NCBI GenBank assembly: GCA_965201115.1
Contig: OZ241745.1
Coordinates: 2,306,308 to 2,370,307, forward strand
Source of the DNA: Alphaproteobacteria bacterium
Lineage (GTDB): Bacteria; Pseudomonadota; Alphaproteobacteria; UBA7887
DNA length: 64,000 bases
Direction of reading: 5' to 3'
Both the position numbers and the translations under genes were made by a program. Below the pieces are notes generated by a model that saw only the letters and a program-made list of their open reading frames with translations, was not told the origin of the DNA and made no database searches. The number at the start of each line of letters is the position of its first letter. Position 1 is the first letter of the stretch. Below, piece after piece: positions 34,801 to 51,989 of the stretch.

Positions 34801-35259
34801 GTCTCCCCCCTGGCTCGAGAGGGAGCCGCCGGTCATGTAGATGCCGATGTCGCCCGCCCCGGCGAGGCGGTTGACATAAAGGAGACGGGAGCTCGGCTCC
34901 CTCGTCTCGACGGAGCCGCCGCTCATGCGGATGATCGCGCTTCCGGTCCCGCGGCGCTGGATCCGCAGGCCCTCCGCCTGGTCCCCCAAGGTTACGACCC
35001 TGCCGGCCGTCATGCGAATCTCGGCGTTGCCGGAACCGTCGTGATCGACCCTGATGCCCCGGTTGTTGGCGGTGTAACCGGTAATGTTGACGCTACCCGG
35101 GTCGACGAGGATGTCGGCCGCGCTACTGCCGCCTTCGATGCAGACGATGATCCCGCCGCCGGTGTGCGGCCCGCCGCGGCACACGTTCTGCGCCGCCGCC
35201 TCCCCGGCTCCCAGCGCGAGCGCAAGCAGCAGCCCCGCCGCAAACGCCCGCGCGCTCAC
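28831..35259 (-). CDS. Giant autotransporter (type Va secretion) with glycine-rich, internally repetitive passenger and C-terminal beta-barrel ending …LTVRF
   Basis: 2142 aa; signal peptide (MSARAFAAGLLLALALGAGEAAAQ); tandem about 65-70-aa passenger repeats (…GGTVTVSG.GKLTGVEGTAAEST.GALTVTV.DEGRVEGD.ESGGTL.ATVEAGG.VTGTI…); C-terminal autotransporter barrel with terminal Phe. Confidence 0.8.
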   Translation of the reverse strand: MSARAFAAGLLLALALGAGEAAAQNVCRGGPHTGGGIIVCIEGGSSAADILVDPGSVNITGYTANNRGIRVDHDGSGNAEIRMTAGRVVTLGDQAEGLRIQRRGTGSAIIRMSGGSVETREPSSRLLYVNRLAGAGDIGIYMTGGSLSSQGGDGSGLTASIASGASGNITVSMSGGSIATQGASATGVSGAHAGTGNVTVSVSGSVSTKGASSAGVAGARSNASSTGAVAVTLSGSDTVVKTEGHSAYGVSGSERGQGDVTVTMTDGLIETTGAGAIGLRGWSGYRGAGVSNVAVVMEGGAIRTRGGSYVNIIHSHGVYAERSGGSGSASARMTGGSVETAGDNANGLHVYKSGSPGKGSVEMTGGAVSAEGLNARGLWVRHDGLGSIEMTTGAAAEVAAPFAIGMEGRLTNDDSAAGRILVTHAGAVEAPEAGVVAWARRSSGHTMGVGATTADDAARTMPMIHVTSSGTVTVGAPVREAFIRGRIAGADETLSAAEQAVLAAITDNDSAALTTALAALPADDYDAAWKAAAEDLRRKRAAATAAPTGDGPLAHAAAEEILGLSRAGVRAMALSHTAIADRVRAGDALSAAERAALTAVLSGDSSGLTTALTALPDADYDAAWKNTVRQHALTYNAGDIHVDVTGGAIDAEGNGVEALYVVPHDSNGAIAVTVSAGARVTGGAKGIYVRGAGVTAGVRNQTVTVHGAAMGGTGAGVHLFGGGAVTVGAGGEVGAASGVAILGDGGGALTATVSGTVTGDIRVDGGGSLTANVMAGGVVTGTIHDPQTALAVAGSIGRILYASGGTVTVSGSGTLTGVEGVAIESTAGALTVTVNDGIRVEGDVKSGGTLTATVEAGGVVTGTIRDPQASFTVGSGASIGRVLYASGGTVTVSGGGKLTGVEGTAAESTAGALTVTVNDEGRVEGDVESGGTLTATVEAGGVVTGTIHNPQASFTFSGSVGRVLYASGGMVTVAGGGKLTGVEGTAAESTMGALTVTVRDEGRVEGDIESGGTLMATVEAGGAVTGTIRNPAAMTVGGSVGRILYADGGTVTVAGGGAVTGVDNDGTTEAIRADAGDLDVTVMANGAVTGLVEGRGAGDLEVDVAGAVTGDIAERGAGDLEVSVAGTVTGGVVGEGAGEHTVTVASSGAVAGTVRLPAGAALTVSGDVGRVHYDNGGAVTVNASGEITGLDIDGTKEAIRGDAGNLAVTVHGMVAGNIEARGDGDLTVTVSETGTINGEIFGRGGGVHTVEIAEKARVLGTVHNPKSGTTIRGAAGRVLFDNGGALMVAATGRIAGIGGEAIRADAGALDVTVASGGMVTGRIEGRGAGAMTVNVSGAVTGAIHGKGAGKHEVTVASGGMVTGDIVDLDAGDLVASVAGRMTGDIEERGAGDLTATVAGRVTGDIEERGAGDLTATVTGTVTGGIRGMGAGSHTVAVMAGGAVTGTVHLPASAMTIAGRVGRVLYDNGGSVTVASGGSVTGVESDGTTEAIRGAAGDLTVDVAARATVTGDIRGEGDGDLKVDVSGKVEGGIFGRGGGEHDVHVKSGGSVEGLIHLAASAVTVDGSARSVLFDRGGTVAVNAGGRLSNLDGRAAVRSASGDLTVTVNGNVVGNIEDLGPGALTVAVANALTGDVIGGGGGMHRLTVASGAEFRGNVRGVEFIAVGGDAEGMLHVPAGGAVEVAAGGALVGAENAEGRRVAVLAETGALSMTVDGMVQGAVEARDAGAASTVTVGAGGEIDGRVTLAGTGSAVEVNGAVQSVDVPRGAVTVGANGRIEEPVARAERVTITAAAGESDEEAAQRVGGGRIDSSGAAVVLKREGRADSMPRITADGRIEVGPAPRHRVYEALPSVLLALNALPAHGDRFASAGAPRGAFARLDAAGGDRHPASSTAQAHHDYRRFGFEAGIEGAAGERGVFAISVHHVRGRADVDTDADTEAGGGRVEITGTGARISGAWLPAENIYVSAQAAATLYEADLDSDAALEGALARDLSGRGYAAGVEIGRRLELGRVTLTPRAGADWSMVEMSSFTDSVNERVSLDAGRRITARAGVRAESAALPGGAGAMFATLDLERELSGAMETTAADRPPFKAEAEATWARLGLGAAHEWADGRMALRANANYAAARHGNRDFTGSATLTVRF

Positions 35260-35280: not shown

Positions 35281-35303
35281 GGGGGGGGGGGGGGGGGGGG
35301 GGG
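35281..35303. repeat. Homopolymeric G23 tract (poly-C in sense orientation) 21 nt upstream of autotransporter-1 start codon
   Basis: 23 consecutive G between promoter-like region (TTGCCG…CAAATAAACGTA) and SD GGGGAG/GTG start of the minus-strand gene. Confidence 0.9.
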
Positions 35304-35439: not shown

Positions 35440-35950
35440 GCCTCGGGGCGGGGGGCGATGACCGCGACTCTCCCCGGCGGGATCGCGGCGCGCGGGAACG
35501 TGCGGGCTGGAAGCCCGCGGTCCCGGGCCCCGCCTTCGGCGGGGTTGCGCCTCCCCCGGCGGCATCGCGGCGGGCGGAAACGTGCGGGCGAGACGCCCGC
35601 GCACCCAAGAAGCTCGCGCGGGCGCCGTTGCGGGGCATTGCGGGGATCCGCGGGGCTCGGGGCTGTCGAGACGCCCGCAGTCCCGGGAAGCGCGCGCCGC
35701 CCGCAAACGCGCCGCAGGCGCTGACCGCCCGGGTGCGCGGGCGTCTCGCCCGCACGTCTCGACAGTTTCGATCGTTGGCGGGAGGGGCGTAACGACTGCG
35801 CCCTTCCCGGCAATGCCGCGGCGCGCGAGAACGTGCGGGCAGGATGCCCGCGGTCCCGGGCCCCGCCTTCGGCGGGGTTGCGCCTTCCCCGGCGGGCGCC
35901 GCGCGGGTCGCCAACGTGCGGGCGAGACGCCCGCGCACCCAGGAAGCGCG
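35440..35950. repeat. Cluster of REP-like dual-hairpin intergenic repeats
   Basis: Recurring units …GGGAACGTGCGGGCAGGATGCCCGCGGTCCCGGGCCCCGCCTTCGGCGGGG… (hairpins GCGGGCA-gga-TGCCCGC and CCCCGCC-ttc-GGCGGGG) and variant GCGGGCG-aga-CGCCCGC. Confidence 0.8.
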
Positions 35951-35953
35951 CGG

Positions 35954-37069
35954 TCAGTGGCGGCGGGCGATCTCCTCCGCGCGCGCCAGCAGCGCGTCGC
36001 CGCTCGCGCACACGATCACCGCATCGCCGACCTCCTCGAGCCGGTCCGGATCGTCCACGCCCGCTACCGCCGCCGCCAGACGCGAAGCCGCCTCCGCCCC
36101 GAACTTGCGGCCCGCCTGCCGCGCCAGAAGCGCACGCTCGCGCTCAAGGCCGCGCGCCCGTTCGCGCGATGCGCCTCGCTCAAGACCACGCGCCTCGCCA
36201 AGCTCAAGCCCACGCGCCTCGCCAAGCGCTTCGCTGCGCTCCGCGCGCTCGGCAAGCAAACTGTCGAGCCGTTCCGCAAACAACGATTCCATGGCCCCCA
36301 AATCCTCCAAATCCCCGACCCGCCTCAAACGCGCAGCCAGCGCGCCGTCCGAAGCCCCGAACCGGTTCGCCTCGAGCATGTGCCGAAGCGTCGCCCCGAA
36401 CGCGCGGCGCAAACTCGCATGCTCCGGACCCGAAAGCAACCGACGCAACGCCGCGACAACCGCCGGCACAGACTCCGGATCCCCGTGCTCAAGCGCAAAA
36501 CGCGCCGACACAACGTTGCCCGCGGGCAAATCCTCCGGACGCAGACGATGAACATCGAGCAGCAGGTAACCCTGCCGGGGCTGAAAACGCTCCAGCGCAG
36601 CCCCCGCCGGCGCTATCTCGTCGCGAACCTCCCGCGACGCAGACCAACGCGCACGCCCGTTGTAAACGACAATCGGCAAGACCGGCGGAAGCGGACCCGC
36701 GCGCCGGTTCTTCCGGTCGTCCCGGCGAAGCCGCGAATACAACTGAGCCGTGTACGCATACACGCGCACCGCCATGTCCAGGTCGACCTGCGACTGAAAC
36801 TCCAGCATGACCAGCAGATACACCCAGCCGGTCGTGCCGTCGGCGGCGCGGTAGCGCAGCCGCCACACGCGGTCGCCCCGCGTCTGCCGCAGATCCTCGT
36901 CCACGTACTCCGCCGGCGCCGGTTCGAGGCTGGCGAGGTCGAGGCGGGAGACATCGAACTCCGGGCCCAGCGCCTGCCGCATGAACCCCCCGAGCAGGTC
37001 GGCGACCGCCCGCTCATGCTCGAAAAACAGTTTAAAGCTTGCATCGTGTATCTCGCGCATGGCGGTCAT
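35954..37069 (-). CDS. Rpn/YhgA-like recombination-promoting nuclease / putative transposase (PDDEXK_7 with C-terminal DUF4351-like tail)
   Basis: 371 aa; N-terminal …DASFKLFFEHERAVADLLGGF… typical of Rpn family; D/E-rich core (…VWRLRYRAADGTTGWVYLLVMLEFQSQVD…). Confidence 0.65.
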   Translation of the reverse strand: MTAMREIHDASFKLFFEHERAVADLLGGFMRQALGPEFDVSRLDLASLEPAPAEYVDEDLRQTRGDRVWRLRYRAADGTTGWVYLLVMLEFQSQVDLDMAVRVYAYTAQLYSRLRRDDRKNRRAGPLPPVLPIVVYNGRARWSASREVRDEIAPAGAALERFQPRQGYLLLDVHRLRPEDLPAGNVVSARFALEHGDPESVPAVVAALRRLLSGPEHASLRRAFGATLRHMLEANRFGASDGALAARLRRVGDLEDLGAMESLFAERLDSLLAERAERSEALGEARGLELGEARGLERGASRERARGLERERALLARQAGRKFGAEAASRLAAAVAGVDDPDRLEEVGDAVIVCASGDALLARAEEIARRH

Positions 37070-37079
37070 TATAGCACAT

Positions 37080-37290
37080 GGCGCCGAACGAAGCGCCCCC
37101 CGAGGATCGCCGGCATCGCGCGGGGCGCCGACGTGCGGGGCATTGCGGGGCTCCGCGGGGCTCGCGCGGCTGCGGGGCTCCGCGGCTTGGCGCTCGCGCC
37201 CTCCTGCCGACGCCGCGGCGGGCGGGAACGCGCGGGCAGGATGCCCGCGGTCCCGGGCCCCGCCTTCGGCGGGGTTGCGGCTTCTTCCGC
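37080..37290. repeat. REP-like dual-hairpin repeat copy between Rpn gene and autotransporter-2
   Basis: Same GCGGGCAGGATGCCCGC / CCCCGCCTTCGGCGGGG unit as elsewhere. Confidence 0.8.
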
Positions 37291-37292
37291 GG

Positions 37293-40200
37293 TCAGAAGC
37301 GCACGGTGAGTGCGGCGCTGCCGCTGAAGTCGCGGTTGCCGTGGCGGGCGGCGGCGTAGGCGGCGTTGGCGCGGAGGGCTATGCGGCCGTCGGCCCATTC
37401 GTGGGCGGCGCCGAGGCCGAGGCGCGCCCATGTCGCTTCCGCTTCGGTCTCGAAGGGGCGGTCTGCCGCTGTTGTTTCCATCGCGCCGGACAGTTCGCGC
37501 TCCAGGTCCAGCGTTGCGAACATGGCGCCGGCGCCGCCGGGGAGGGCGTCGGACTCGGCGCGCACGCCGGCGCGGGCCGTTATGCGCCGGCCCGCGTCAA
37601 GCGATACGCGCTCGTTCACGGAGTCCGTGAACGACGACATCTCCACCATCGACCAATCGGCGCCCGCGCGCGGGGTCAGCGTCACGCGGCCCAAGTCGAG
37701 GCGCCGCCCGATCTCCACGCCGGCGGCGTAGCCGCGGCCCGAAAGATCCCGCGCAAGGGCGCCCTCGAGCGCCACGTCCGAATCGAGGTCGGTCTCGTAA
37801 AGCGTCGCCGACGCCTGACCGCTCACATAGACGTTCTCCGCCGGCAGCCACGCGCCCGACAGGCGGGCGCCCGTGCCGGTTATCTCGACACGGCCGCCGC
37901 CCGCCTCCGCATCCATCTCCGCGTCTGTCTCCACATCGGCGCGCCCGCGCACATGATGAACGGAGACCGCGAACACGCCGCGTTCGCCCGCCGCGCCCTC
38001 GAACCCCGCCTCGAACCCGAAGCGGCGGTAGTCGTGATGCGCCTGCGCGGTCGAGGAGGCCGGATGGCGGTCGCCGCCGCCAGCGTCGAGGTGCGCGAAC
38101 GCGCCGCGCGGCGCGCCCGCGGCGGCGAAGCGGTCGCCGTGGGCGGGCAGCGCGTTCAGCGCCAGCAGCACCGAAGGCAGTGCCTCGTACACGCGGTGCC
38201 GCGCCGCCGGCCCGACCTCGATACGGCCATCGGCGGTTATCCGAACCTGCGAATCGACACGGCCCTCGCGCTTGAGGGTAATCGTGGCGCCTGCGGCGTC
38301 GATGCGACCGCCGCCGACGCGCAGCGCCGCCTCCTCGTCGGTTTCGCCCGCGGCCGCACGTATCGTTACCGTCTCGGCGCCGATGACGGGGTCCTCGATG
38401 CGCCCGTTCTCGCCCACCGTCACCGCGCCGCGGGGCACATCGACGCTCTGCGCCGCGCCATCGACCGTGATCTTGCTGTCGGCGCCCGCCAGCGTGACCT
38501 TGCCGTCGATTTCGCCGCCGGCGCCGACCTTCACGGTCGAAGCCGCGCCGGCGTCGCGCGCCTCGACGGCGCCCTGCACCGCGCCATCGACTGTCATGTC
38601 CAGGGCGCCGGTTTCGGCGACGACCGCCACGCGGCGGCCTTGCGCGTCCTCCGCGCCCACGAGCATGCCGTCCGCGGGGACCGTCACCTCGTTGCCCGCG
38701 GGCACATCCAGCGTTCCCTCCGCGCGCCCGGCCACGAGTATGGACTCCACGCCCTCGACATTTCCCTTGAAGACGCCGCCGGGCTGCACCGTCAGCCGAT
38801 GCATGCCTCCGCCGCCGCCGATGACGTCGCCCGTCAGCTCGTTCGCAACCGTAACCGCGAGGTTTCCGGGGCCGGTGTCGGAGACGCTGCCCATGACGAC
38901 GCCGTTCACCGTCACCGTCAGGTCATCGGCCGCGCTGTAAACCGCGCGGCCGTCGAGGCCCGTTATCCGTCCTTCGGAACCGACCTCGACCGCGCCGCCG
39001 CGATCGAACCGGATGCTCCGTGCGGAGCCGTCGACCGTCACCGTGCTGGCGGCCAAGTGGATGAGACCCTCGACCGAGCCGCCGGATTTCACATGAACGT
39101 CGTGCTCGCCGCCGCCGAGGCCGAATATCCGGCCCTCGACCTTGCCGCTCACATCCACCTTCAAATCGCCATCGCCCGCGCCGCGAATGTCTCCCGTTAC
39201 GGTCCCCATCGCCGCCACGTCCACCGTCAGATCGCCCGCCGCGCTGCGGATCGCCTCCCGCACCCCATCGGTCTCGACGCCGGCAATGGTCCCCGACGCC
39301 GCGATGGTTACCGAACCGCCATTGTCGTACAGCACGCGCGCCGCGCGGCCCGCGACCGTCGCCGCGTGCGAACCCGCGCCGACGCCGCGGATGGCGCCCG
39401 CAACCGAACCCCCGGACGCAACCGTAACCCGGTGCATGCCCGCGCCCATGCCGCGGATATCGCCGGCAACCGAGCCCGCAACCGTTACCGTCAGGTCACC
39501 CGCGCCGCGCTCCTCGACGGCGCCCGCAACCGAACCGCCGGACGCAATCGCGACCCGATGCGCGCCGGCGCCCATGCCGCGGATATCGCCGGAAACCGCG
39601 CCCGCAACCGTTACCGTCAGGTCGCCCGCGCCGCGCTCCTCGATCGAACCCGTCACCGAACCCGCAACCGTCGCGACCAGGTCGCCCGCGTCCATATCGA
39701 CAATGTTACCCGTCACCGAGCCGCCGGAGGCGACCGTAACCTCGTGCCTGCCGGCGCCCTTGCCGAGGATGGCGCCCGTTACCTTGCCGCCCGCGTTCAC
39801 GGTCATGCCGCCCGCGCCGCGCTCCTCGATGACGCCCGCGACGGCGCCGCCGGACGCGATCGCCACCGTCAGGTCTCCCGCGTCGGAACGGATCGCTTCC
39901 CGGACGCCCTCTATCTCGAGACCGGCAATCCGGCCCCGCGCGCCGACCTTCACGGCGCCGCCACGGTCCAGCAACACGCGCCCGGCCGCGCCGTGCTCCA
40001 CATCCACCTCGCTCGCCGCCAGGCGCACCGTTCCCGTGACCATGCCGCCGCCGCGCACCGCGACCGTGTGTTCGCCGGCGCCGAGACCCAGTATGTCGCC
40101 CTCGACCGTGCCGGTTACCGTCGCCGCCAGAGCGCCGCCGCGGCTCTCCACATTTCCGGTCGCCTCGCCGGCGACCGTAACCTCCAGGTCGCCCGCGGCG

Positions 40201-42950
40201 CTGCGGATCGCCTCGCCGCCGATGCCCGAGACGCGCCCGCTCGCGGCGATGGTCAGCGCGCCGCCGTTGTCGAACAGAACGCGCCCGACGGCGCCGCTTA
40301 TGGTTGTCCCGCGCTTCGGGTTATGCACCGTGCCTGCAACCGTCGCCTTCTCCGCGATTTCGATGGTGTGCGTCCCGCCGCCGCGGCCGAATATCTCCCC
40401 CATAATCGTCCCGGTTTCCGACACCGTGACCGTCAGATCGCCGTCGCCGCGCGCTTCGATATTGCCCGTCACCTCGCCGTGAACGGTGACCGTCAAATCC
40501 CCCGCGTCGCCGCGGATCGCCTCCCGCGCGCCCTCGATTTCGACGCCCGTAATCTCGCCGTTCGCATTGACCGTGACGGCGCCGCCGTTGTCGTAATAAA
40601 TGCGTCCGACCTTGCCCGCGACGGTCATCGCGCCTGTCGGCAAACGCACCGTCCCCGTGACGGCGCCCGCGGATTCTATCGCGACCGTGTGCTCGCCGGC
40701 GTCCTCGCCGCGAATATCGCCGGCGACCGTGTTCGACACCGTGACGTCCAGGTTGCCGGCGCCGCGTTCGGCAATGTCGCCCGTTACCTCGCCGGAAACC
40801 GCGACTTTCAGATTGCCGGCGCCGCGGCCCTCGATGTTTCCCGCAACCTCGCCGTCGGCGGCCACCGTGACGGTCAAATCCCCCGCGCCGGCGCGGATCG
40901 CTTCCCGCGTTCCCTCGATTTCGACGCCCGTAATCCGGCCGCCGCCGGCGACCGTTACCGTTCCGCCGTTGTCGTAGAGTATGCGCCCGATGCGCACCTC
41001 GTCCGCAACCGCGAACGGGCTCCGGGGGTTGTGTATCGTGCCTGTAACCGCGCCGCCGGACATGATATTCGCCGTCAGCGCGCCGGCGTCGACGATGCGG
41101 ATATCGCCTTCGATCCTGCCTCCGCTCTCCACCGTGACGGCGAGATCGGTTTCCGGCGCTTCGTAGTCTTCGCCGGGTTCCGCGGGCGGCGCGTATCCGG
41201 CCTCGATCGCCAAGCCCGAGCCTGCCTTGACGACGCCCGTGCGGCCGACCGTTACGGCGCCGCCGCGCCGCATCCGGATGGCGGCGTCCCGCGCGCTCGC
41301 GCCGATCGTCTCGACGGTTCCGTTCACGATTACGCGGTCCTCCACGCCGGCGCCGGCGGGGGGCCCAGTTATCACGATGGCGTGCATTACGGGTTCGAGG
41401 AGGTTCGCGGTCGTGGTCTCGCCGTCGGCGCCGGGCCGCTCCGCCTCGACGGTCCGCCACCCATAGACATGCGTCGGGTATATGTACCGGTTTCCGTTGG
41501 CGCCGAGCTGTTCTTGCGTAATCGCGCCGTTTTCGTAGTCCTCTTCCGTCAGCGCCTGGGCGCGCACGGTTGCGCCCTCGGCCACCCGGACGGTAAACGC
41601 GGCGCCGGCGGTTCGCGGCAGGGCGTAGATGGCGGTACCGCCGCGGGTCTCCACCGATCCGCCCGTGACGTCGACGATGTGCCCTTCGATCGTGTCGGTC
41701 GTTTCGGGATCGTCGGTCAGATCGTTCGCCGCGTTGAGTACCTGCGCGTCGATGGCGAGGCCCTGCACGGTCGCTATCGTGCCCGACGACACGACGCGGA
41801 CGCGGCCCAAGCCGGAGTTCCGGGCGTTGATGCCCGAGCCCTGCCGGGTGCTCCAGGTCGGGCTGCGCCGGACCGCGGCCCGGATCGTGCCGCCGGCGTT
41901 GACGATGACGTCGCCCGACTGATAGGTGTCGCCGTCGGCGTCGGGGGCCGAGTCCCTGGCGAAATTGCTGCCGGGAAGAAGCCACGCCCAGATGGCCCTG
42001 CCGCCCTCGGCGGAGACGTCGAGCAGCGATCCCGGTCTGAGGTCGATGACGATATCGCCGTCCTCGCCATTCTGCTCGACATACATGCCGTTGCCGCCCG
42101 CCGACCCCTCGACGTTCCGGACGATGCTGTTAGCTCCCATTACGATATTGACGTCGAAATTCTTTCTTCCCTCGGAGATGGGGACGTAATCGGTCAGATG
42201 GACCCATATCGCGGAGCCGTTGCCGGCCCAATGGCCGATGCTCCCGCCGAACCGGGGGTTGAGATCGACGTTGCCGTTAAGCGTGAGCGCTATGGGCGCC
42301 CACCCGCTGCCGCTCATATGGATGCCGCTGTGGGAGTTCGTGGCCTCCCTCGCGGACGAGTAGTACAGCTCGGTACCGTCGGATGGGCGATTCGGGTCGT
42401 CCGCCGGCCAATACGACGGCGTCCGGCTGAACTCGATCGTGGCGCCCTCCTCGACGATCAAGGTCGGGCCGCCGTGCGTCTTCAACTTGAGAGCGCCGTC
42501 GACCCAGAAGCCGCGCATGTCGGCGAGGCCGGTCGCCGCGATCCTGACGCCCGTCTTGACGGTGATTTCCACATTGTTCTCACGGGTGTTTTCGCCCACT
42601 ATCTGATCGGCGGGATCCGTGTAGTAGGTTCCCCGGCGATGGTCCCAGTACCTCACGCCGTTCCGCGTGCGCCCGCCTCCGTACTGGTCCCAGTGGACGG
42701 CTCCCCAGTCGGCCTCGCCCGCCGGCTTGTTCGCCCTCGCGGCGCAGACCGCGGCGGTTGTGTACTGCTGGTTATGCGGGCTTCGCAGGCCATAGCCCGC
42801 GCGCACGTCCGGGGCTGTCATGGCGCATATTACGGGGGCCTGAAACGGCGCCAGCTGCGCCTGCGCCGGGGCGGCGAACATCGCCAGGCCGACCGCGCAG
42901 AAGACGGCGGCGGCGCGCATCGCGGTTCCGGGGAAGCTCCGTGCGATCAT
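37293..42950 (-). CDS. Second giant autotransporter paralog, with C-terminal beta-barrel about 90% identical to the first
   Basis: Start taken at ATG 42950 (MIARSFPGTAMRAAAVFCAVGLAMFAAPAQA signal peptide; SD GAGGA); alternative in-frame ATGs 42962/43049/42920; same passenger repeat family and near-identical last about 350 aa. Confidence 0.8.
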   Translation of the reverse strand: MIARSFPGTAMRAAAVFCAVGLAMFAAPAQAQLAPFQAPVICAMTAPDVRAGYGLRSPHNQQYTTAAVCAARANKPAGEADWGAVHWDQYGGGRTRNGVRYWDHRRGTYYTDPADQIVGENTRENNVEITVKTGVRIAATGLADMRGFWVDGALKLKTHGGPTLIVEEGATIEFSRTPSYWPADDPNRPSDGTELYYSSAREATNSHSGIHMSGSGWAPIALTLNGNVDLNPRFGGSIGHWAGNGSAIWVHLTDYVPISEGRKNFDVNIVMGANSIVRNVEGSAGGNGMYVEQNGEDGDIVIDLRPGSLLDVSAEGGRAIWAWLLPGSNFARDSAPDADGDTYQSGDVIVNAGGTIRAAVRRSPTWSTRQGSGINARNSGLGRVRVVSSGTIATVQGLAIDAQVLNAANDLTDDPETTDTIEGHIVDVTGGSVETRGGTAIYALPRTAGAAFTVRVAEGATVRAQALTEEDYENGAITQEQLGANGNRYIYPTHVYGWRTVEAERPGADGETTTANLLEPVMHAIVITGPPAGAGVEDRVIVNGTVETIGASARDAAIRMRRGGAVTVGRTGVVKAGSGLAIEAGYAPPAEPGEDYEAPETDLAVTVESGGRIEGDIRIVDAGALTANIMSGGAVTGTIHNPRSPFAVADEVRIGRILYDNGGTVTVAGGGRITGVEIEGTREAIRAGAGDLTVTVAADGEVAGNIEGRGAGNLKVAVSGEVTGDIAERGAGNLDVTVSNTVAGDIRGEDAGEHTVAIESAGAVTGTVRLPTGAMTVAGKVGRIYYDNGGAVTVNANGEITGVEIEGAREAIRGDAGDLTVTVHGEVTGNIEARGDGDLTVTVSETGTIMGEIFGRGGGTHTIEIAEKATVAGTVHNPKRGTTISGAVGRVLFDNGGALTIAASGRVSGIGGEAIRSAAGDLEVTVAGEATGNVESRGGALAATVTGTVEGDILGLGAGEHTVAVRGGGMVTGTVRLAASEVDVEHGAAGRVLLDRGGAVKVGARGRIAGLEIEGVREAIRSDAGDLTVAIASGGAVAGVIEERGAGGMTVNAGGKVTGAILGKGAGRHEVTVASGGSVTGNIVDMDAGDLVATVAGSVTGSIEERGAGDLTVTVAGAVSGDIRGMGAGAHRVAIASGGSVAGAVEERGAGDLTVTVAGSVAGDIRGMGAGMHRVTVASGGSVAGAIRGVGAGSHAATVAGRAARVLYDNGGSVTIAASGTIAGVETDGVREAIRSAAGDLTVDVAAMGTVTGDIRGAGDGDLKVDVSGKVEGRIFGLGGGEHDVHVKSGGSVEGLIHLAASTVTVDGSARSIRFDRGGAVEVGSEGRITGLDGRAVYSAADDLTVTVNGVVMGSVSDTGPGNLAVTVANELTGDVIGGGGGMHRLTVQPGGVFKGNVEGVESILVAGRAEGTLDVPAGNEVTVPADGMLVGAEDAQGRRVAVVAETGALDMTVDGAVQGAVEARDAGAASTVKVGAGGEIDGKVTLAGADSKITVDGAAQSVDVPRGAVTVGENGRIEDPVIGAETVTIRAAAGETDEEAALRVGGGRIDAAGATITLKREGRVDSQVRITADGRIEVGPAARHRVYEALPSVLLALNALPAHGDRFAAAGAPRGAFAHLDAGGGDRHPASSTAQAHHDYRRFGFEAGFEGAAGERGVFAVSVHHVRGRADVETDAEMDAEAGGGRVEITGTGARLSGAWLPAENVYVSGQASATLYETDLDSDVALEGALARDLSGRGYAAGVEIGRRLDLGRVTLTPRAGADWSMVEMSSFTDSVNERVSLDAGRRITARAGVRAESDALPGGAGAMFATLDLERELSGAMETTAADRPFETEAEATWARLGLGAAHEWADGRIALRANAAYAAARHGNRDFSGSAALTVRF

Positions 42951-42988
42951 GGTTGTCCTCATGGGGTCGGGGCGCGCCGGCCTGCCGC

Positions 42989-43005
42989 GGGGGGGGGGGG
43001 GGGGG
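42989..43005. repeat. Homopolymeric G17 tract (poly-C in sense) upstream of autotransporter-2, with flanks conserved relative to tract 1 (CAAAT(A/T)AACGTA-Cn-GCGGCAG)
   Basis: 17 consecutive G; flanking motif shared with 35281-35303 tract. Confidence 0.9.
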
Positions 43006-43119
43006 TACGTTAATTTGCCCGCCGCCGCCGCGGGCAGGCGCAAACCCATTGCGTGGAACGGGTATCGTCATGACGGGGCCCTCCTGGGCGGGAACGGACA
43101 ACGCGCGGATGCCGCGAGC

Positions 43120-43860
43120 GGCGGGATGGTACGCCATGCCGCGCGCGGGGGGCAACCGTTTTGTGCGGGGGGACTCGCGGCGGCTTCCTGGGCGCGCGGG
43201 CGGGGCGGCGGGGATCCGCGGGGCTCTGCGGGGCTCGCGCGGCCTGGCGCTCGCGTTTTCCTGCCGACGCCGCGGTGGGCGGGGACGTGCGGGCAGGATG
43301 CCCGCGGTCCCGGGCCCCGCCTTCGGCGGGGTTGCGCGGTGGCGGGAAACGGCGCGCCCTCCCCGCCGACGCCGCGGCGGGTGGGAACGTGCGGGCGGGG
43401 ACGCCCGCGCACCCAGGAAGTTCGCGCCTTCGGCGCGGGTGGGGCGGCGGGGATCCGCGGGGCTCTGCGGGGCTCGCGCGGTTGCGGGGCTCTGCGGCCT
43501 GGCGCTCGCGGCTTCCTGCCGACGCTGCGGTGGGCGGGAATGTGCGGGCAGGATGCCCGCGGTCCCGGGCCCCGCCTTCGGCGGGGTTGCGCGGTGGCGG
43601 GCAACGGCGCGCCCTCCCCGCCGACGCCGCGGCGGGCGGGAACGTGCGGGCGGGGACGCCCGCGCACCCAGGAAGTTCGCGCCTTCGGCGCGGGTGGGGC
43701 GGCGGGGATCCGCGGGGCTCTGCGGGGCTCGCGCGGTTGCGGAGCTCTCGGCCTGGCGCTCGCGGCTTCCTGCCGACGCTGCGGTGGGCGGGAACGTGCG
43801 GGCAGGATGCCCGCGGTCCCGGGCCCCGCCTTCGGCGGGGGTGCGAATCGGCGGGCGGTC
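43120..43860. repeat. REP-like repeat array including about 2.6 tandem copies of an about 240-bp composite unit (about 43210-43850)
   Basis: Unit GGATCCGCGGGGCTCTGCGGGGCTCGCGCGG…GTGCGGGCAGGATGCCCGCGGTCCCGGGCCCCGCCTTCGGCGGGG…GTGCGGGCGGGGACGCCCGCGCACCCAGGAAGTTCGCGCCTTCGGCGCGGG recurs with period about 240 bp. Confidence 0.8.
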
Positions 43861-45138
43861 TCATTTTATGTAGAGGCGCACCTCGGGGGCGGCGGCTTCG
43901 GGGGCGGTGGCGAAGGCCAGATCGATCCGTTCGGCCGGCATGTTCATGGCAAGCAGCGAGGCGAGGACGCGCTCGGCGTTGCGGCCCGCGGCCTCCGCCG
44001 CGCCGCCGGGCGGGGACGCCGCCAATATCTCGAAGCGCGCGCCCGGACGCCGCGCCAGCGCCGCGCTCACCGCCTCGTAAAGCGCGTCTTCGTAATCCGG
44101 CGCCCCGTTGTCGAAACGGATGGTGAGCAGCGCGGGCGCGCGCCCGGACGCGGCCGGGGGCGGCGGCGGCGCGGGAACCGGCGGCGCGACCGCGGCGAGA
44201 GCCGGCGGCGGCGCCGCGGCGTCCGGTTCGGGCGCCGCATCGGTCATGCGCGCGGTCGCGCCGTCGCGGAAACCCGCTTGCGCGCCGTCCACATAGGCGG
44301 CGTAGCGGCCGAGAATCTCGCTCACATCCGCCAGCAGGCGGTCGTTCTCGCCGACCACGCGGGTTACGCCGCTTTCCACGCCCGAGATCTCGCCGCCATC
44401 GACGCCGAGCGCGTCGCGCACCGACCGCGCCGCGCGGGTCGACTCGGACAAATAGGCCGCCATGCCGCGATTTTCGGCCACGCGCGCGCTCAACTCGCGC
44501 AGGCGCGTCGAATAGGCGGAGGCGACCGCGCGCAGCGCGCTTTGCGCCGATCTCCACTGGCTGATGAGCAGCGGGTCGTCGGGCGGCGCGCCCTCGCCCC
44601 AGCGCTGGTCGACCGCTTCCGCCGCCGCGGCGTACAGCGTGGCCGACTCGGCCACGCCGTCGGCCAGCGCTCGCAGTTCCGCGCGCTGGCTGTCGATCAG
44701 CCCCGACAACCCCGCCAGTTCGTTGGAGAGCGCGGCCGCGTGCAGGCGCATGAACGCCGCGGGCGCGCCGGCGGCCACGCTCCTCTCCCCGAGCGCGGGC
44801 GGCGCGTCCGGCGCCGGCCCCGGCGCCGATGGCGGCTGGAGCGGCGGCGCTTCCGCCGCGGGCGGGGGGGGCGGGGGCGGCGCGAGCGGCGGGGCTTCCG
44901 CTACAAGCGCCGGCGGCGGCGCGAGGGCGGGCGGCGGGAGCGGCTCCGGCTCGGGCCGCGCCTCGGGCTCCGGCGGCGGCAAGGGCGCCGCGACCGGCGC
45001 CGCCGCGACCGGCGGAAGCGCATCCGGCGGCGCGAGCAGATCGGTCGCGTCGGGCGTCAGCCCGAAGCCGTCGAACGAACAGGCGCCGAGTATGCCGGCC
45101 GCCAGGCCCAGCGCGGCCCGCCGCAGAACCTTCGTCAT
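43861..45138 (-). CDS. Proline-rich lipoprotein of unknown function
   Basis: ATG 45138; lipobox (…LAAGILGAC-S); long PPxxAPP-rich spacer then alpha-helical core; 425 aa. Confidence 0.55.
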   Translation of the reverse strand: MTKVLRRAALGLAAGILGACSFDGFGLTPDATDLLAPPDALPPVAAAPVAAPLPPPEPEARPEPEPLPPPALAPPPALVAEAPPLAPPPPPPPAAEAPPLQPPSAPGPAPDAPPALGERSVAAGAPAAFMRLHAAALSNELAGLSGLIDSQRAELRALADGVAESATLYAAAAEAVDQRWGEGAPPDDPLLISQWRSAQSALRAVASAYSTRLRELSARVAENRGMAAYLSESTRAARSVRDALGVDGGEISGVESGVTRVVGENDRLLADVSEILGRYAAYVDGAQAGFRDGATARMTDAAPEPDAAAPPPALAAVAPPVPAPPPPPAASGRAPALLTIRFDNGAPDYEDALYEAVSAALARRPGARFEILAASPPGGAAEAAGRNAERVLASLLAMNMPAERIDLAFATAPEAAAPEVRLYIK

Positions 45139-45149
45139 GAACGCACCCC

Positions 45150-45615
45150 TCGGCCCGCCGCGCCGCGCGCGGGCAAAACCCCCACCGCCGGTCCGCCGGT
45201 CACGGGACCGAGTATATACCGGCGCGCGGGGATCCGCAACGCGCCTTCCGGGCGCGCAGGCGCGGCGCGGAAACGTGCGGGCGGGGACGGGGCGGGCGCC
45301 CAGGAAGCGCGCCGCGCACTCCCCGCAAACGCCGCGCTGCTTGCCGACGTGCGGGCAGGATGCCCGCGGTCCCGGGCCCCGCCTTCGGCGGGGCAAGCAT
45401 TTCGGTACAGACACCGAGGGCGCGCCGCCATGCGCTTCCTCGCTAACGCCGCGCCGCACGGGAACGTGCGGGCGAGACGCCCGGGCGCCCAGGAAGCGCG
45501 CCGCGCACTCCCCGCAAACGCCGCGCTGCTTGCCGACGTGCGGACAGGATGCCCGCGGTCCCGGGCCCCGCCTTCGGCGGGGCAAGCATTTCGGTACAGA
45601 CACCGAGGGCGCGGT
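45150..45615. repeat. Four tandem/nearby copies of REP-like dual-hairpin repeat (two subtypes alternating)
   Basis: …GCGGGCAGGATGCCCGCGGTCCCGGGCCCCGCCTTCGGCGGGGCAAGCATTTCGGTACAGACAC… twice, interleaved with …GTGCGGGCGGGGACGGGGCGGGCGCCCAGGAAGCGCGCCGCGCACTCCCCGCAAACGCCGCG… units. Confidence 0.8.
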
Positions 45616-46292
45616 CAAGAGAACGTCAGCGCCATCCACCGCACTTCGCCCACCGTTTCGGCGTCGTCGGGCCAGGGAACGGCGGGGTATTCGGGCGCCG
45701 GGTTGTCGCTTACCAGCCGCCAGCGCCGGTCCGCGCCCTGCCCCGCGCGCTTGATCACCAGCCCGTCGCCGGTGCGCAGCACATACAGCTTGCCCGCGCG
45801 GCGGCGGCGCGCGGCGCGGTTGACCAGCACGCGCGACCCGTCGGGCAGCGTGGGCTCCATCGACGCGCCGCGCACGCGCATGACCATGCACTGCGTGGGG
45901 TCGAGGCCGTTGGCGTCGAGCCAGTCGCGGCGGAACGACAGCGCGCTGACGGCGCGTTCATCGTCGGCCTCGGCGCCGCCGCCCGCCGCGGCGGCCACTT
46001 CGACCACCTCCACCTGCCGCGTCGCGGCGGGCGCCGCGTTCCCGCCGCCGCGGGAGTCAGGGGCCGGCGCGGGCGCGCCCGCGCGCGGCGCGATGCGCAG
46101 TTCCAGCCCCAGCGCGCCGCAGATTTCCGCCGCCCGATCGACCGAGGGGGCCTGTTTGCGTTTGGGGTCGAGCAGGCCGCGCAGCGTCCACGGTCGCAGG
46201 CCGCGCGCGCGTTCGAACCGCCGCGCGCCCATCGCGGCGCCGTCCAGCGCCTCGCGCACCGCGTCGCGGATTCGCTCGCTGGGGGGGCGCAC
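45615..46292 (-). CDS. LexA/CI-like transcriptional repressor (HTH + S24 peptidase domain)
   Basis: C-terminal S24 signature …GASMEPTLPDGSRVLV…GKLYVLR.GDGLVIKR (Ser/Lys dyad context); N-terminal HTH-like. Confidence 0.65.
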   Translation of the reverse strand: MRPPSERIRDAVREALDGAAMGARRFERARGLRPWTLRGLLDPKRKQAPSVDRAAEICGALGLELRIAPRAGAPAPAPDSRGGGNAAPAATRQVEVVEVAAAAGGGAEADDERAVSALSFRRDWLDANGLDPTQCMVMRVRGASMEPTLPDGSRVLVNRAARRRRAGKLYVLRTGDGLVIKRAGQGADRRWRLVSDNPAPEYPAVPWPDDAETVGEVRWMALTFS

Positions 46293-46305
46293 GGCGCGCC
46301 GCGGC

Positions 46306-47742
46306 TCAGGGCGCCTCGGTGCCGCCGACCGTGAGCCCGTCGACGAGCAGGGTCGGCTGCCCCACGCCCACGGGCACGCCCTGGCCGTTCTTGCCGCAGG
46401 TTCCGATGCCGGGGTCGAGGCGCATGTCGGCGCCGATCGCGCGCACGTTTTTCAGCACTTCGTGGCCTGTCCCGATCAGCGTCGCGCCCTTGACCGGCGC
46501 GCCCACGCGCCCGTCCTCGATGCGGTAGGCCTCGGAGGCGGAAAACACGAACTTGCCGGATGTGATGTCCACCTGCCCGCCGCCGAAATTCACCGCGTAC
46601 AGGCCGTTGGGGACGCTCCGGATAATGTCCTCGGGGTCCTCCGCGCCCGCCTGCATGATTGTGTTGCGCATGCGCGGCATGGGTTGGTGCGCGAAACTCT
46701 GGCGGCGCCCGTTGCCGGTGGAGGCGGCGCCGGTCAGCCGCGCGTTGAGACGGTCGTGCATGTAGCCCACCAGTATCCCGTCGTCGATCAGCGTCGTGGA
46801 CTGCGTGGGCGTGCCTTCGTCATCGACGGTGAGCGAGCCGCGGCGGTCGGGCAGCGTGCCGTCGTCGATCACCGTCACCCCGGGGGCGGCGACGCGTTCG
46901 CCCATCAGGTCCGAGAACACGCTGGTCTTCTTGCGGTTGAAATCGCCCTCCAGCCCGTGGCCGATCGCCTCGTGGAGCAGGATGCCGGGCCAGCCGGGGC
47001 CGAGAACGACCTGCATTTCGCCCGCCGGGGCGGCCTTCGCCTCGAGCAGCGTCAGCGCCTGGCGCAGCGCCTCGTCCACGTGGCCGCGCCAGCGCGCCGG
47101 CGCCAGCAGCGGCGCATAGCCGTGGCGCCCGCCCGAACCGTAGCTGCCGGTTTCGCGCACGCCGCCTTCCTCGACGACCACCGAGACATTGAGACGCAGC
47201 AGCGGGCGGATGTCGTCGGCGCGCGCGCCGTCGGCGCGGCGGATCGAGACCGCCTGCCAGCTGCCGGTCAGCGACGCCATGACCTGCCGCACGCGCGTAT
47301 CGGCGGCGCGCGCATGGGCGTCGATCTCCTGCAGCAGATGCACCTTGCTGGCGAACGGGACCGCGTCGAGCGGGTTGCCGGGCGCGTAGAGCTGGCGGTT
47401 GGTCTTGCCCGGCGCGGCGCCGGGCGCGCCCGCGCGGCCCGAGCGCACCGCGCGCACGGTCTCGGCCGCGCGCCGGATCGCCGCCTCGCTCAGCTCGGAG
47501 GCGTGCGCATAGCCCGTCGCCTCGCCCGACACCGCGCGCAGGCCGAACCCCTGCGCGGTGTCGAAACTCGCCGCCTTCAGCTTGCCGTCCTCGAACGAAA
47601 ACGATTCCGATTGCCGGTATTCGAGGAAGAGCTCGCCGTCGTCGGCGCCGCGCAGCGCCTCGCCGACCAGCGAATCGACGCGCCCGGGGTCCATCCCGGT
47701 GCGCGCAAAAAACAGTTCGTCCAACGCCGCCGTGTCCGTCAT
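46306..47742 (-). CDS. tldD: Metalloprotease TldD
   Basis: ATG 47742 (MTDTAALDELFFAR…); conserved HEAIGHGLEGDF motif; 478 aa. Confidence 0.85.
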   Translation of the reverse strand: MTDTAALDELFFARTGMDPGRVDSLVGEALRGADDGELFLEYRQSESFSFEDGKLKAASFDTAQGFGLRAVSGEATGYAHASELSEAAIRRAAETVRAVRSGRAGAPGAAPGKTNRQLYAPGNPLDAVPFASKVHLLQEIDAHARAADTRVRQVMASLTGSWQAVSIRRADGARADDIRPLLRLNVSVVVEEGGVRETGSYGSGGRHGYAPLLAPARWRGHVDEALRQALTLLEAKAAPAGEMQVVLGPGWPGILLHEAIGHGLEGDFNRKKTSVFSDLMGERVAAPGVTVIDDGTLPDRRGSLTVDDEGTPTQSTTLIDDGILVGYMHDRLNARLTGAASTGNGRRQSFAHQPMPRMRNTIMQAGAEDPEDIIRSVPNGLYAVNFGGGQVDITSGKFVFSASEAYRIEDGRVGAPVKGATLIGTGHEVLKNVRAIGADMRLDPGIGTCGKNGQGVPVGVGQPTLLVDGLTVGGTEAP

Positions 47743-47829
47743 CGCCTGTCCTCCCGTGCCCGAAGCGCCCCAACGTAATACGGCGCGCGCAACGTTCCAA
47801 CCCGCGCGTCCGCCGCTGAGAGTCTGTAC

Positions 47830-48000
47830 CGGAATTCGGCAGCTATCGGTTCGGCAGGGACCGGTGGGCGTCTTGTCCGCTTGCGCTTCCCTGCCGACAT
47901 CGCGCCTTGCGGGAACGTGCGGGCAGGATGCCCGCGGTCCCGGGCCCCGCCTTCGGCGGGGCAAGCATTTCGGTACAGACACTCACGGCGCGCCGGCGCC
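47830..48000. repeat. REP-like dual-hairpin repeat copy upstream of Sel1 lipoprotein gene
   Basis: …GGGAACGTGCGGGCAGGATGCCCGCGGTCCCGGGCCCCGCCTTCGGCGGGGCAAGCATTTCGGTACAGACACTCA…. Confidence 0.8.
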
Positions 48001-48049
48001 CGGGCGGGCGGCGGGTGGCGCCGGCGGGCCGCGCGCGGTAGGCTTCGCG

Positions 48050-48071
48050 CCCCCCCCCCCCCCCCCCCCCC
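48050..48071. repeat. Homopolymeric C22 tract 48 nt upstream of Sel1-repeat lipoprotein start
   Basis: 22 consecutive C on the coding strand between REP element and RBS (GGAG) of gene at 48120. Confidence 0.9.
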
Positions 48072-48119
48072 GCGCCGATTTGCGTCCGCGCGATTCGCAA
48101 GGAAGCCACGGAGTCCGTC

Positions 48120-49214
48120 ATGCGTTGGATCGAAGCCGGCCCCGCGCTCGCCGTCCTGCTCGCCCTGGCCGCCTGCGAAACGGACGAGCCCTCCGGCGGC
48201 GCCGAGGCCGGCGACGGCGCCGCATCGGAAGCCTACGAAGCCGCCGTCGCCGCCTGGGAGGGCGGGGATTCCGCGGCCGCCGCCGCCGGTTTCCGCGCGC
48301 TCGCCGACGCCGGCGACCCGGCGGCGCAAACCGCGCTGGCCACACTCTACGCCAACGGCGAGGGCGTGGCGCGCGACGACGCCGAAGCCGCCGCGTGGTT
48401 TCGCCGCGCCGCCGAACAAGACGGGGTCGTCGCCCAATACTATCTCGGCGTCATGTACGACAGCGGGCGCGGAGTGGACGAAGACGCGGCAACGGCGGCC
48501 GCATGGTTTCGCCGCGCGGCCGAGGCCGGACACGCCAAGGCGCAGTTCGACCTCGGCGCCATGTACGACGCCGGACGCGGCGTCGCGCAAGACGACGCGC
48601 AAGCCGCCGCCTGGTACCGCCGCGCGGCGGAGGCCGGACTTCCGGCCGCGCAATTCAACGCGGCAGTCTTGTACGACACCGGCCGCGGCGTGGAGCAGGA
48701 CGCGGCGGAGGCCGCCGCGTGGTACCGCCGCGCGGCCGAAGCCGGACACCCCGCCGCCCAGCTGGCCGTCGGCATGATGCACGACCTCGGCCGCGGCGCC
48801 GCGCAAGACGATGCGCAAGCCGCCATCTGGTATCTCCGCGCGGCGGAACAGGACCACCCCGCCGCGCAGTTCAACATCGGCGCCATGTACGACGCCGGAC
48901 GCGGCGTGGAGCAGGACGACGCGGAAGCGGCGGCGTGGTACCGCCGCGCGGCCGAAGCCGGACACCCCGCCGCCCGGTTCAATCTCGCCCTCATGCGCGA
49001 GCAGGGCCGCGGGGTCGAGCGGGATTATGTGCGCGCCCACATGTGGTTCGCGCTCGCCGCCGCCGGGTTCGCGCCGCCGGAGGCCGGGGAAGAGGATTTG
49101 CGCGCCGTCGCGGAGCGCAACCGCGATCGCGTCGCGGAGCGACTCTCGGCCGGGGAGCTCGAACGCGCCCGCGCCCTCGCGCGCGACTGGCGCCCCGCCG
49201 GCGATGCCCGGTAA
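48120..49214 (+). CDS. Sel1-repeat (SLR/TPR-like) lipoprotein
   Basis: Lipobox LLALAAC; about 7 tandem 36-aa Sel1 repeats (…AAWYRRAAEAGHPAAQFNLG.MY..GRGV.QD…). Confidence 0.8.
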   Translation: MRWIEAGPALAVLLALAACETDEPSGGAEAGDGAASEAYEAAVAAWEGGDSAAAAAGFRALADAGDPAAQTALATLYANGEGVARDDAEAAAWFRRAAEQDGVVAQYYLGVMYDSGRGVDEDAATAAAWFRRAAEAGHAKAQFDLGAMYDAGRGVAQDDAQAAAWYRRAAEAGLPAAQFNAAVLYDTGRGVEQDAAEAAAWYRRAAEAGHPAAQLAVGMMHDLGRGAAQDDAQAAIWYLRAAEQDHPAAQFNIGAMYDAGRGVEQDDAEAAAWYRRAAEAGHPAARFNLALMREQGRGVERDYVRAHMWFALAAAGFAPPEAGEEDLRAVAERNRDRVAERLSAGELERARALARDWRPAGDAR

Positions 49215-49483
49215 CGCCGGCGGAAGCCTCGCCATCGGCTCCCGACCGCGCGAACGGAACGCCGCTTGCTTGCGGGCGCGGCCGTCCCGCGCGGCTCACG
49301 GGCGCGCGGGGGCGTGCGGATGCCGGCGCTCCCGGATTGCGGGCGCGCGGGCATGCGCAGGGTATTGTCTCCCCCGCGCGGGGCGGCTATGGTGCGGCGG
49401 ACGCGGCGCGGGGGACGCGCCGGAGCGGTCGGGCGCGCTCTGCGCGCCGGCGACGGTCTTCAGCGAGGAGCGGGGCTAAACAC

Positions 49484-50305
49484 ATGAGAATTTTCGCTAT
49501 TGCCGCCGGGCTCGCGGCGGCGGCGGCGTCCGGCGCGGCCTGGGCCGAGGGCGCGGAAACGGGCGGCGCGCCGCAGCCGTGGCAGATGAACTTTCCGGAG
49601 CCGGCCACGCCGGTCATGGCGGAAATCGTCGGCCTGCACGATATCCTGCTCGTCGTCATCGTGGCGATCGCGGTGTTCGTCACCGCGCTGATGGGCTACG
49701 CCATGTACCGCTTCCGCGCGTCGGCCAACCCGACGCCGAGCCGGCGGACGCACAACGCCGCGCTGGAAATTACGTGGACCGTGATTCCGACGCTCATCCT
49801 CATCGCCATCGCCGTCCCGAGCTTCCGGCTGCTCTATTACGCGGAGACGCACCCGGAGCCCGACCTGGTCGTCAAGGCGACCGGGGCGAGCTGGTACTGG
49901 ATGTACGAATATGTGGACGACGGCATCGAGCTCTATTCGATGATGGTCGATGAAGACGACCTCGAGGAGGGCCAGCCGCGCCTGCTGGCCACCGACGCGC
50001 CGCTCGTGGTTCCGGCCGACAAGGTGGTCAAGATTCAGGTCACATCGTCCGACGTCATCCATGCCTGGGCGATGCCGGCGTTCGGCGTCAAGGTCGACGC
50101 CGTGCCGGGCCGCCTGAACGAAATCTGGTTTATCGCCGAGAAGACCGGAACCTTCTACGGCCAGTGCTCGGAGCTCTGCGGAACCAACCACGCCTTCATG
50201 CCCATCGAGCTGAAGGTGGTGACGCAAGAGGAATTCGACGAATGGCGGGCGCTTAACGTCGCCGCGGCGGCCGCCCGCTCCGCGCCGGCGGCGCAGAACG
50301 GATAG
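49484..50305 (+). CDS. ctaC: Cytochrome c oxidase subunit II
   Basis: ATG 49484 (MRIFAIAAGLAAA…); CuA site (HAWAMP…CSELCGTNHAFMP); the listed 915-aa ORF is upstream read-through. Confidence 0.9.
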   Translation: MRIFAIAAGLAAAAASGAAWAEGAETGGAPQPWQMNFPEPATPVMAEIVGLHDILLVVIVAIAVFVTALMGYAMYRFRASANPTPSRRTHNAALEITWTVIPTLILIAIAVPSFRLLYYAETHPEPDLVVKATGASWYWMYEYVDDGIELYSMMVDEDDLEEGQPRLLATDAPLVVPADKVVKIQVTSSDVIHAWAMPAFGVKVDAVPGRLNEIWFIAEKTGTFYGQCSELCGTNHAFMPIELKVVTQEEFDEWRALNVAAAAARSAPAAQNG

Positions 50306-50312
50306 GGAGTAG

Positions 50313-51989
<1,677 letters not shown>

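Follow-up and report, generated by a model that had tools for sequence, protein, structure and literature searches.

A 64,000-nt stretch of an alphaproteobacterial genome (assembly GCA_965201115.1, contig OZ241745.1, forward-strand positions 2,306,308 to 2,370,307; GTDB lineage UBA7887), referred to here in its full length as the window, carries an uninterrupted run of cytosines (C22) just in front of sel1, a gene for a lipoprotein built of Sel1 repeats. The question raised by this locus is whether such a tract, in a position where it could influence the gene, is a switch or a mutational accident. There is about an even chance, in our judgement, that C22 is a real, recently expanded and slippage-prone tract that makes sel1 expression variable; in that sense the sel1 tract is probably a new and young member of the known slipped-strand contingency tracts. 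The size of the tract, its place between conserved blocks of the leader, length changes in sister tracts of the same lineage and the bias of long tracts towards the 5' ends of genes all support this answer, and a regulatory role is plausible on the sequence evidence.

The initial annotation placed a 22-nt C run 48 nt before the ATG of a lipoprotein with about seven Sel1 repeats, and this description was borne out in every part: the run is exactly 22 C, 48 nt lie between its end and the ATG at 48120, and the product has a lipobox and seven Sel1 repeats (PF08238, E 3.6e-59, Pfam). The window has a G+C content of 70.4%, and an independent and identically distributed (i.i.d.) model with the composition of the window predicts 6.5e-6 C runs of at least 22 nt in 64 kb; for C or G runs of at least 17 nt the same kind of model predicts ~0.002, against 4 observed. 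Chance does not account for the long C/G tracts of the window. Among the matches listed in a scan of contigs by TldD, 80 related alphaproteobacterial loci (1.38 Mb; all at no more than 80% TldD identity and none with sel1) contain no homopolymer of any base longer than 9. C22 thus far exceeds the length that composition predicts, as is characteristic of contingency loci, and it also occupies the kind of position in which such loci are found (promoter, 5' leader or 5' coding region), as it sits between two conserved blocks.

Sequencing or assembly error, with the run absent or much shorter in the real genome, is a very improbable source of the tract. Long homopolymers are error-prone on every platform, and the scaffold of the closest strain stops ~38 nt short of the site and cannot confirm the tract. 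Against this, a C7 run is called as exactly C7 in 52 of 56 repeats of a CRISPR (clustered regularly interspaced short palindromic repeats) array in the same assembly, indicating consistent homopolymer calling, and independent assemblies of relatives have C17, C27 and C30 at homologous autotransporter leaders. Nor would artefactual runs be expected inside a contig between conserved flanks.

The age of the tract can be read from relatives, whose sel1 loci were reached via a protein search with TldD, the product of the gene divergent from sel1, followed by comparison of the contigs. The closest strain, L084, is an Illumina scaffold with 98.4% DNA identity to window positions 45797-47816 and, because of where it ends, is uninformative on the presence of the tract. 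Two further strains, L085 and L086, cover the site at 92% DNA identity in tldD and 84% in sel1, and their Sel1 protein is 86% identical to that of the window. When the tldD-sel1 spacers are aligned, the sequence on either side of the tract proves to be conserved in these two strains. The upstream flank reads ...GGCGCCGG(A/C)GGGC...GGTAGGCT(C/T)CGCG and the downstream flank GC(A/G)TCCGCGCG(T/A)TTCGCAAG...GAAGCCACGGAGTCCG(C/T)CATG, with point changes and one 3-nt indel separating the leader of the window (48072-48119) from that of the relatives. At the tract site itself L085 and L086 have a 16-nt, non-repetitive, C-rich sequence, CACGCGCGCCCTTCCC, in place of the C22 and adjoining GCGCCGATTT of the window, and they contain no seed run of at least 7 at the site, only CCCTTCCC. 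Since the spacer of the relatives lacks the tract and retains the conserved flanks, the sel1 tract is derived and young, and C22 is an expansion located at one definite position within a functional leader. The comparison at sel1 is one of presence against absence, with C22 in the window and no tract in L085 and L086. The housekeeping regions around tldD in two relatives (TldD 86-87% identical, 43 kb in total) contain a single G9 only, and a metagenome scan with the sel1 leader returned no match.

Whether the tract is coding decides between two kinds of switch. The true start of sel1 could lie upstream, in which case the tract would encode poly-proline in an N-terminal extension and the gene would be ON at C21 or C24. 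L085 and L086 offer some grounds for this: an in-frame ATG/GTG lies inside C(A/G)TGGTAGGCT, with a GGAGGG Shine-Dalgarno (SD) sequence 7 nt upstream, and this start adds 24 residues, MVGSAHARPSRIRAFRKKEATESA, before MRWIEAG; the L085 gene is so called, at 383 aa. The tract would fall at codon 6 of this extension, mirroring the autotransporter and adhesin tracts described below, and indels downstream of the sel1 tract are multiples of 3. In the window, however, the codon at that start is GCG, the SD reads GGCGGG, and the sel1 frame is interrupted by a stop codon, TAG at 48039-48041, 9 nt ahead of the tract, while neither of the remaining two frames has a start nearer than an inserted element further upstream. 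With the start and SD mutated, the frame closed and no nearby starts in the other frames, the tract of the window is judged to be non-coding. Furthermore, the conserved ATG at 48120 has a GGAG of its own and gives a product with a normal 19-residue lipoprotein signal peptide, and a frameshift switch inside sel1 is improbable.

A non-coding tract could still make sel1 expression variable. During replication it would gain or lose C:G pairs by slipped-strand mispairing, and at 22 units the rate of slippage should be high, leading to mixed lengths within a population. The sole -10-like hexamer, TAGGCT, stands immediately ahead of the tract and has the counterpart TGGTAGGCT in the relatives; the tract would thus separate a -10-like region upstream from a leader with the ribosome-binding site downstream. 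What a change of length would affect depends on the position of the transcription start: the geometry of the promoter in one case, the first ~25 nt of the mRNA in the other. Use of TAGGCT would place the transcription start where the tract begins, and the tract would then belong to the transcript and not to a promoter spacer; the mRNA would begin with a poly-C leader free of structure, and the template strand would have a G run there. By either route the outcome would be heritable, stochastic cell-to-cell variation of sel1 expression. Length instability at sel1 itself, and its effect on sel1 expression, are what we infer from these features together with the behaviour of the sister tracts.

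Two comparisons between the long tracts of the window may be recorded here. Homology between the sel1 leader and the autotransporter leaders was considered in either orientation and rejected, as only short motifs are held in common. The hexamer ATTTGC occurs 6-7 nt past each of the three long tracts on the + strand (35311, 43013 and 48078), even though two of these are G runs and one is a C run; the hexamer is found 25 times in the window, on both strands, and its placement may be chance. The coordinates of the features discussed are collected in Table 1.

Table 1. Features of the window discussed in the text (positions count from the first base of the window).
Feature	Positions	Strand	Remarks
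CRISPR array, 56 repeats	2781-6636		repeat GCCGCCCCCCCGCGCGGGGGGCGCGGATTGAAAC
Trailer end of CRISPR array	6002-6636	+	C7 grown to C14 (6005-6018), C9 (6289-6297), C12 (6499-6510) and C17 (6592-6608)
C23 (sense; G23 on +) in leader of autotransporter gene AT1	35281-35303	-	poly-Pro in the open reading frame from ATG 35363; signal-peptide start GTG 35259
C17 (sense; G17 on +) in leader of autotransporter gene AT2	42989-43005	-	upstream ATG 43071; signal-peptide start 42950
tldD	46306-47742	-	divergent from sel1; anchor for finding relatives
Insertion resembling a miniature inverted-repeat transposable element (MITE), 169 nt	47817-47985	+	19-nt inverted arms; REP-like core 47930-47962
Conserved block upstream of tract	47994-48049	+	holds TAGGCT 48039-48044; from spacer alignment and frame analysis
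C22 homopolymer	48050-48071	+	non-coding 5' region of sel1; absent at the orthologous position in L085 and L086
Conserved 48-nt leader, tract to ATG	48072-48119	+	GGAG 48110-48113
sel1	48120-49214	+	364 aa, lipobox LAAC, 7 Sel1 repeats
ctaC-ctaD, cytochrome c oxidase subunits II and I	49484-51989	+	downstream of sel1; ctaC 49484-50305, ctaD 50319-51989

That tracts of this kind change length in the lineage is indicated by the two large autotransporter genes, AT1 and AT2, which are minus-strand paralogues with 65% identity over 1382 residues. The further sense-strand poly-C tracts that the initial annotation had seen at autotransporters are indeed there, as G23 and G17 on the + strand, and both genes encode the PF03797 barrel of type Va autotransporters (3.9e-27 for AT2 and 7.4e-28 for the C-terminal 319 aa of AT1). 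Taken at full length, AT1 (28831-35259, minus strand) has no Pfam match, a filter effect of its long repetitive passenger, owing to which automated annotation may miss the autotransporter family in this gene.

A reading of the tracts as upstream elements is true of the non-coding 5' tract of sel1; the two autotransporter tracts are inside an N-terminal extension, where they encode poly-proline. A conserved SD and ATG (35363 and 43071) precede each autotransporter poly-C by ~60 nt, and the open reading frames (ORFs) from these ATGs begin MTMPRPYRGFAPALAVQINV-Pn in AT1 and MTIPVPRNGFAPARGGGGQINV-Pn in AT2, several of the differences between the two being synonymous third-position changes. A second start further downstream, again with an SD, is retained in both genes, and in AT1 the TGA that ends the upstream ORF shares bases with the GTG of the downstream start (GTGA). 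The long form would be in frame at C24 or C21 in AT1, which has C23 (one short), and at C16 or C19 in AT2, which has C17 (one over), so that both copies in the window are one base out of frame, whereas the homologues in L081, L082 and L083 are in frame.

These homologues are among six retrieved with the AT1 N-terminus fused in frame as the protein query. One of them, P0121, begins MTMPRPYRGFAPVLAVQINV-P6-REGRGMSARALAP..., an AT1-type extension that continues in frame into the signal peptide and passenger, and its DNA (L082) has C17 where AT1 has C23, between flanks that are ~96% identical. A second type of leader has C30 in L081 and C27 in L083, in both cases with the upstream ATG in frame with the signal peptide, and a decayed autotransporter leader in L089 (~9880-9950) retains C7AC3, with no upstream ATG and with a stop codon in the signal peptide. 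Tract length therefore varies between relatives at the autotransporter loci (C23 vs C17; C30 vs C27), which marks these as slippage-prone contingency tracts and shows that such tracts change length in the lineage. As far as the reading frames tell, the autotransporter tracts are intragenic, poly-proline-coding and length-varying, apparently switches of the classic frameshift type. The extension has no Pfam family match, and the literature was not searched for it specifically. The Pfam family ESPR was considered as its identity and rejected, since the fused AT1 and AT2 N-termini, P0121 and P0122 have no Pfam match at E up to 10; the similarity is one of layout only.

Other genes of the relatives suggest that the habit may be lineage-wide, with C17-C30 tracts in autotransporters and a G11 tract in a giant adhesin gene predicted to act as frameshift switches in the 5' coding region. 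The G11 (L081, 1375-1385, sense) spans codons 18-21, within the signal peptide, of a 5043-aa LapA/Calx-beta adhesin-like gene, and since this tract is poly-G in the sense orientation, sense poly-C is no rule in the lineage. L081 also has C14 (3612-3625), around codon 62 of a small gene for a hypothetical protein that adjoins a TIR-domain gene. Outside CRISPR, the long tracts of the window and of 146 kb from relatives all lie no more than ~65 codons from a gene start or just upstream of one, and four of the five independent long tracts are in genes for secreted proteins or lipoproteins. The phase-variable surfaceome proposed at the outset was right in that the tracts are non-random, stand at the 5' ends of secreted-protein and lipoprotein genes and, in the autotransporters, vary in length; the word 'coordinated' is unsupported, because slippage at separate tracts is independent.

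The CRISPR array, which the initial annotation had missed as a source of long C runs (C14, C12 and C17 inside repeats, 6005-6608), provides the evidence for a different explanation of the sel1 tract. The array is preceded by cas7, cas4 and cas1 and met by a convergent cas3 (6632-9067), and all four expansions of its C7 run are found among the last nine repeats. This end is far from cas1, which in most arrays is the old end. Expansion of C7 only in the oldest repeats fits a slow, time-dependent growth without selection. A duplicated spacer (6147-6320) lies in the same part of the array, and 3.5 copies of a 10-nt unit, CGCCCAGGGC, precede the degenerate last repeat (6560-6594).

By this account a mutational bias lengthens C runs, and C22 is a neutral by-product, tolerated in a non-essential leader with no meaningful effect on expression and not maintained by selection. 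We regard this as a tentative possibility, though on the unlikely side. The CRISPR expansions (to C9, C12, C14 and C17) appear to depend on time and are unrelated to gene control, and hence no selective reason is needed for a C run to grow; it had been anticipated that tracts unlinked to surface genes would undo the functional claim, and to this extent that has happened. Several observations at sel1 itself likewise weigh against a switch, some of them also for a neutral origin. The nearest relatives for which the site is covered, at 92% DNA identity in tldD, do not have the tract, which means that it is no conserved regulatory element. The SD and start found upstream in the relatives are mutated in the window and the start appears decayed, suggesting relaxed constraint. 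There is no promoter motif at the sel1 tract: a consensus scan of 47600-48300 gave no sigma-70 promoter, consensus promoter and terminator scans round all three tracts gave nothing, and RNA folding of the sel1 leader gave no structure beyond that of shuffled sequences. Finally, the assembled length of C22 may differ by 1-2 nt from the true one.

Against a neutral origin, the long tracts of the window and relatives are found, outside CRISPR, at the 5' ends of genes only, most of which encode secreted proteins, and none of the tracts is in a 3' intergenic or housekeeping region. The absence of a seed run of at least 7 at the site in the relatives points the same way. Furthermore, 22 nt of G:C at a distance of 48 nt from a start codon would hardly be silent by the standard of known cases, in which one C more or less changes expression (PMC10172299).

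It had also been proposed that a REP-like (repetitive extragenic palindromic) element lies immediately upstream of each tract. This did not hold, as the core is 88 nt away at sel1, 210 nt at AT1 and 295 nt at AT2. At sel1 the core is part of the MITE-like insertion, whose inverted arms (47817-47835 and 47967-47985) have no other occurrence in the window. The ~169-nt block is absent from L084, L085 and L086, and the L084 alignment stops exactly at its edge; being absent from the relatives, the REP-like element is a separate insertion, independent of the tract. The 33-nt core occurs in nine copies (at most 1 mismatch; 0 expected), all on the + strand and within 12.5 kb (35513-47962), a multiplicity of short, GC-rich, intergenic hairpin elements that fits REP sequences or bacterial interspersed mosaic elements (BIMEs). 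A 255-nt unit with the core is repeated three times in tandem at 43239-44002, and the 3.2 kb between AT2 and a Peptidase_S24 gene consist largely of REP-like repeats. No REP-associated transposase was found among the ORFs scanned against Pfam, and a metagenome scan with the core gave no match. A specific link from REP to tract is not supported. Between AT1 and AT2, with REP-like copies on both sides, lies a YhgA-like gene (Transposase_31, PF04754; 35954-37069, minus strand).

The gene behind the tract is specific to the lineage. Its product begins MRWIEAGPALAVLLALAAC, the lipobox LAAC is read from the sequence at residues 16-19, and multiple repeats with a lipobox signal peptide identify it as a Sel1-like repeat lipoprotein. 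In NCBIfam it has only repeat-level matches and resembles MerG (a phenylmercury resistance protein), AlgK (a lipoprotein), ExoR (a regulator) and MotX (a flagellar protein) far below the cut-offs. A protein search found no close homologue among the 120 matches listed, all of which are repeat-level at no more than 57% identity, and exact-sequence look-ups with the Sel1 and TldD proteins of the window gave no match. tldD and ctaC-ctaD are immediate, divergent neighbours in more than 50 related genomes, which makes sel1, with its leader (47743-49483), a lineage-specific insertion between them. In L001 (TldD 80% identical) the tldD-ctaC gap is filled by a DUF3422 gene, and in L085 a YhgA-like gene follows sel1 where ctaC is expected. 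Upstream of tldD, on the minus strand (47775-47810), GGAAC is followed 18 nt on by CGTT and is kept in all four strains; by eye this resembles alphaproteobacterial extracytoplasmic function (ECF) promoters of the EcfG type, with a spacing one base over the usual 16-17. Rfam gave no match in the window or the sel1 leader, no tRNAs were found in the window, and GC skew gave no usable signal for the direction of replication.

Among known systems, the closest analogue of the sel1 tract, if it is transcribed, is uspA1 of Moraxella catarrhalis. The 5' untranslated region of this surface-protein gene contains a poly(G) tract, located after the transcription start and before the start codon, which tunes the amount of transcript with no frameshift. 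It differs in belonging to another phylum-level lineage, in its shorter tract and in its mapped transcription start. In Bordetella pertussis the fim3 promoter (Pfim3) has a poly(C) tract of 11-16, with mixed lengths within single cultures and a link between length and expression (PMC10172299). The sel1 locus is like fim2/fim3 in having sense-strand poly-C upstream of an envelope or surface gene, with single-base slippage expected (PMC10172299), but the Bordetella tract lies in a mapped BvgA-dependent promoter and its effect on expression was measured, whereas here the tract is C22, no promoter or activator site was found, and close relatives lack it.

In nalP and ausI of Neisseria meningitidis, poly-C in the autotransporter coding region turns the genes ON or OFF by frameshift (PMC5472700). 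These correspond to the two autotransporter tracts of the window but not to the non-coding sel1 tract, which no ORF of the window includes; the autotransporter tracts differ from them in preceding the signal peptide, in being much longer (17-30) and in having a second start with an SD downstream. Bartonella krasnovii, an alphaproteobacterium, has mononucleotide repeats early in the reading frame of adhesins, and switching was shown experimentally for badE and other homopolymer contingency loci (PMC11466379). They include an A run of nine bases in badE and runs of ~7-12 in the other loci listed, all intragenic and in a low-GC genome (PMC11466379). Reversible indels in homopolymers are also known from the frd operon of Mycobacterium bovis (PMC12263978) and simple sequence repeats of M. 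tuberculosis (PMC13596474), but those tracts are in coding or operon sequence of metabolic genes and not at the 5' ends of secreted-protein genes. The lengths of 22-30 exceed the ranges given for the published systems compared. No report of homopolymer contingency loci in a high-GC alphaproteobacterium was found in the literature searched, although the adhesin loci of low-GC Bartonella are published (PMC11466379).

The observations can be joined in one picture, which is doubtful as a whole. An uncultured, high-GC, Rhodospirillales-like lineage with genomes of ~3.5 Mb would run a contingency system on C17-C30 tracts. Autotransporter tracts would encode 6-10 consecutive prolines in a new N-terminal extension before the signal peptide, tying expression to reading frame and to poly-proline translation, and the sel1 tract would be newly recruited, acting via the mRNA leader or the promoter; the same bias towards longer C runs would erode the CRISPR repeats. 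On the practical side, gene callers mis-start or split genes at such tracts, and assembled tract lengths are not reliable to the base. Most of what is known about homopolymer contingency loci comes from a few host-adapted bacteria, and unusually long tracts in an uncultured alphaproteobacterial lineage of high GC would broaden the range of the phenomenon. Furthermore, old and maintained autotransporter tracts, a young sel1 tract and non-functional CRISPR expansions would form a natural series that could show how such switches arise.

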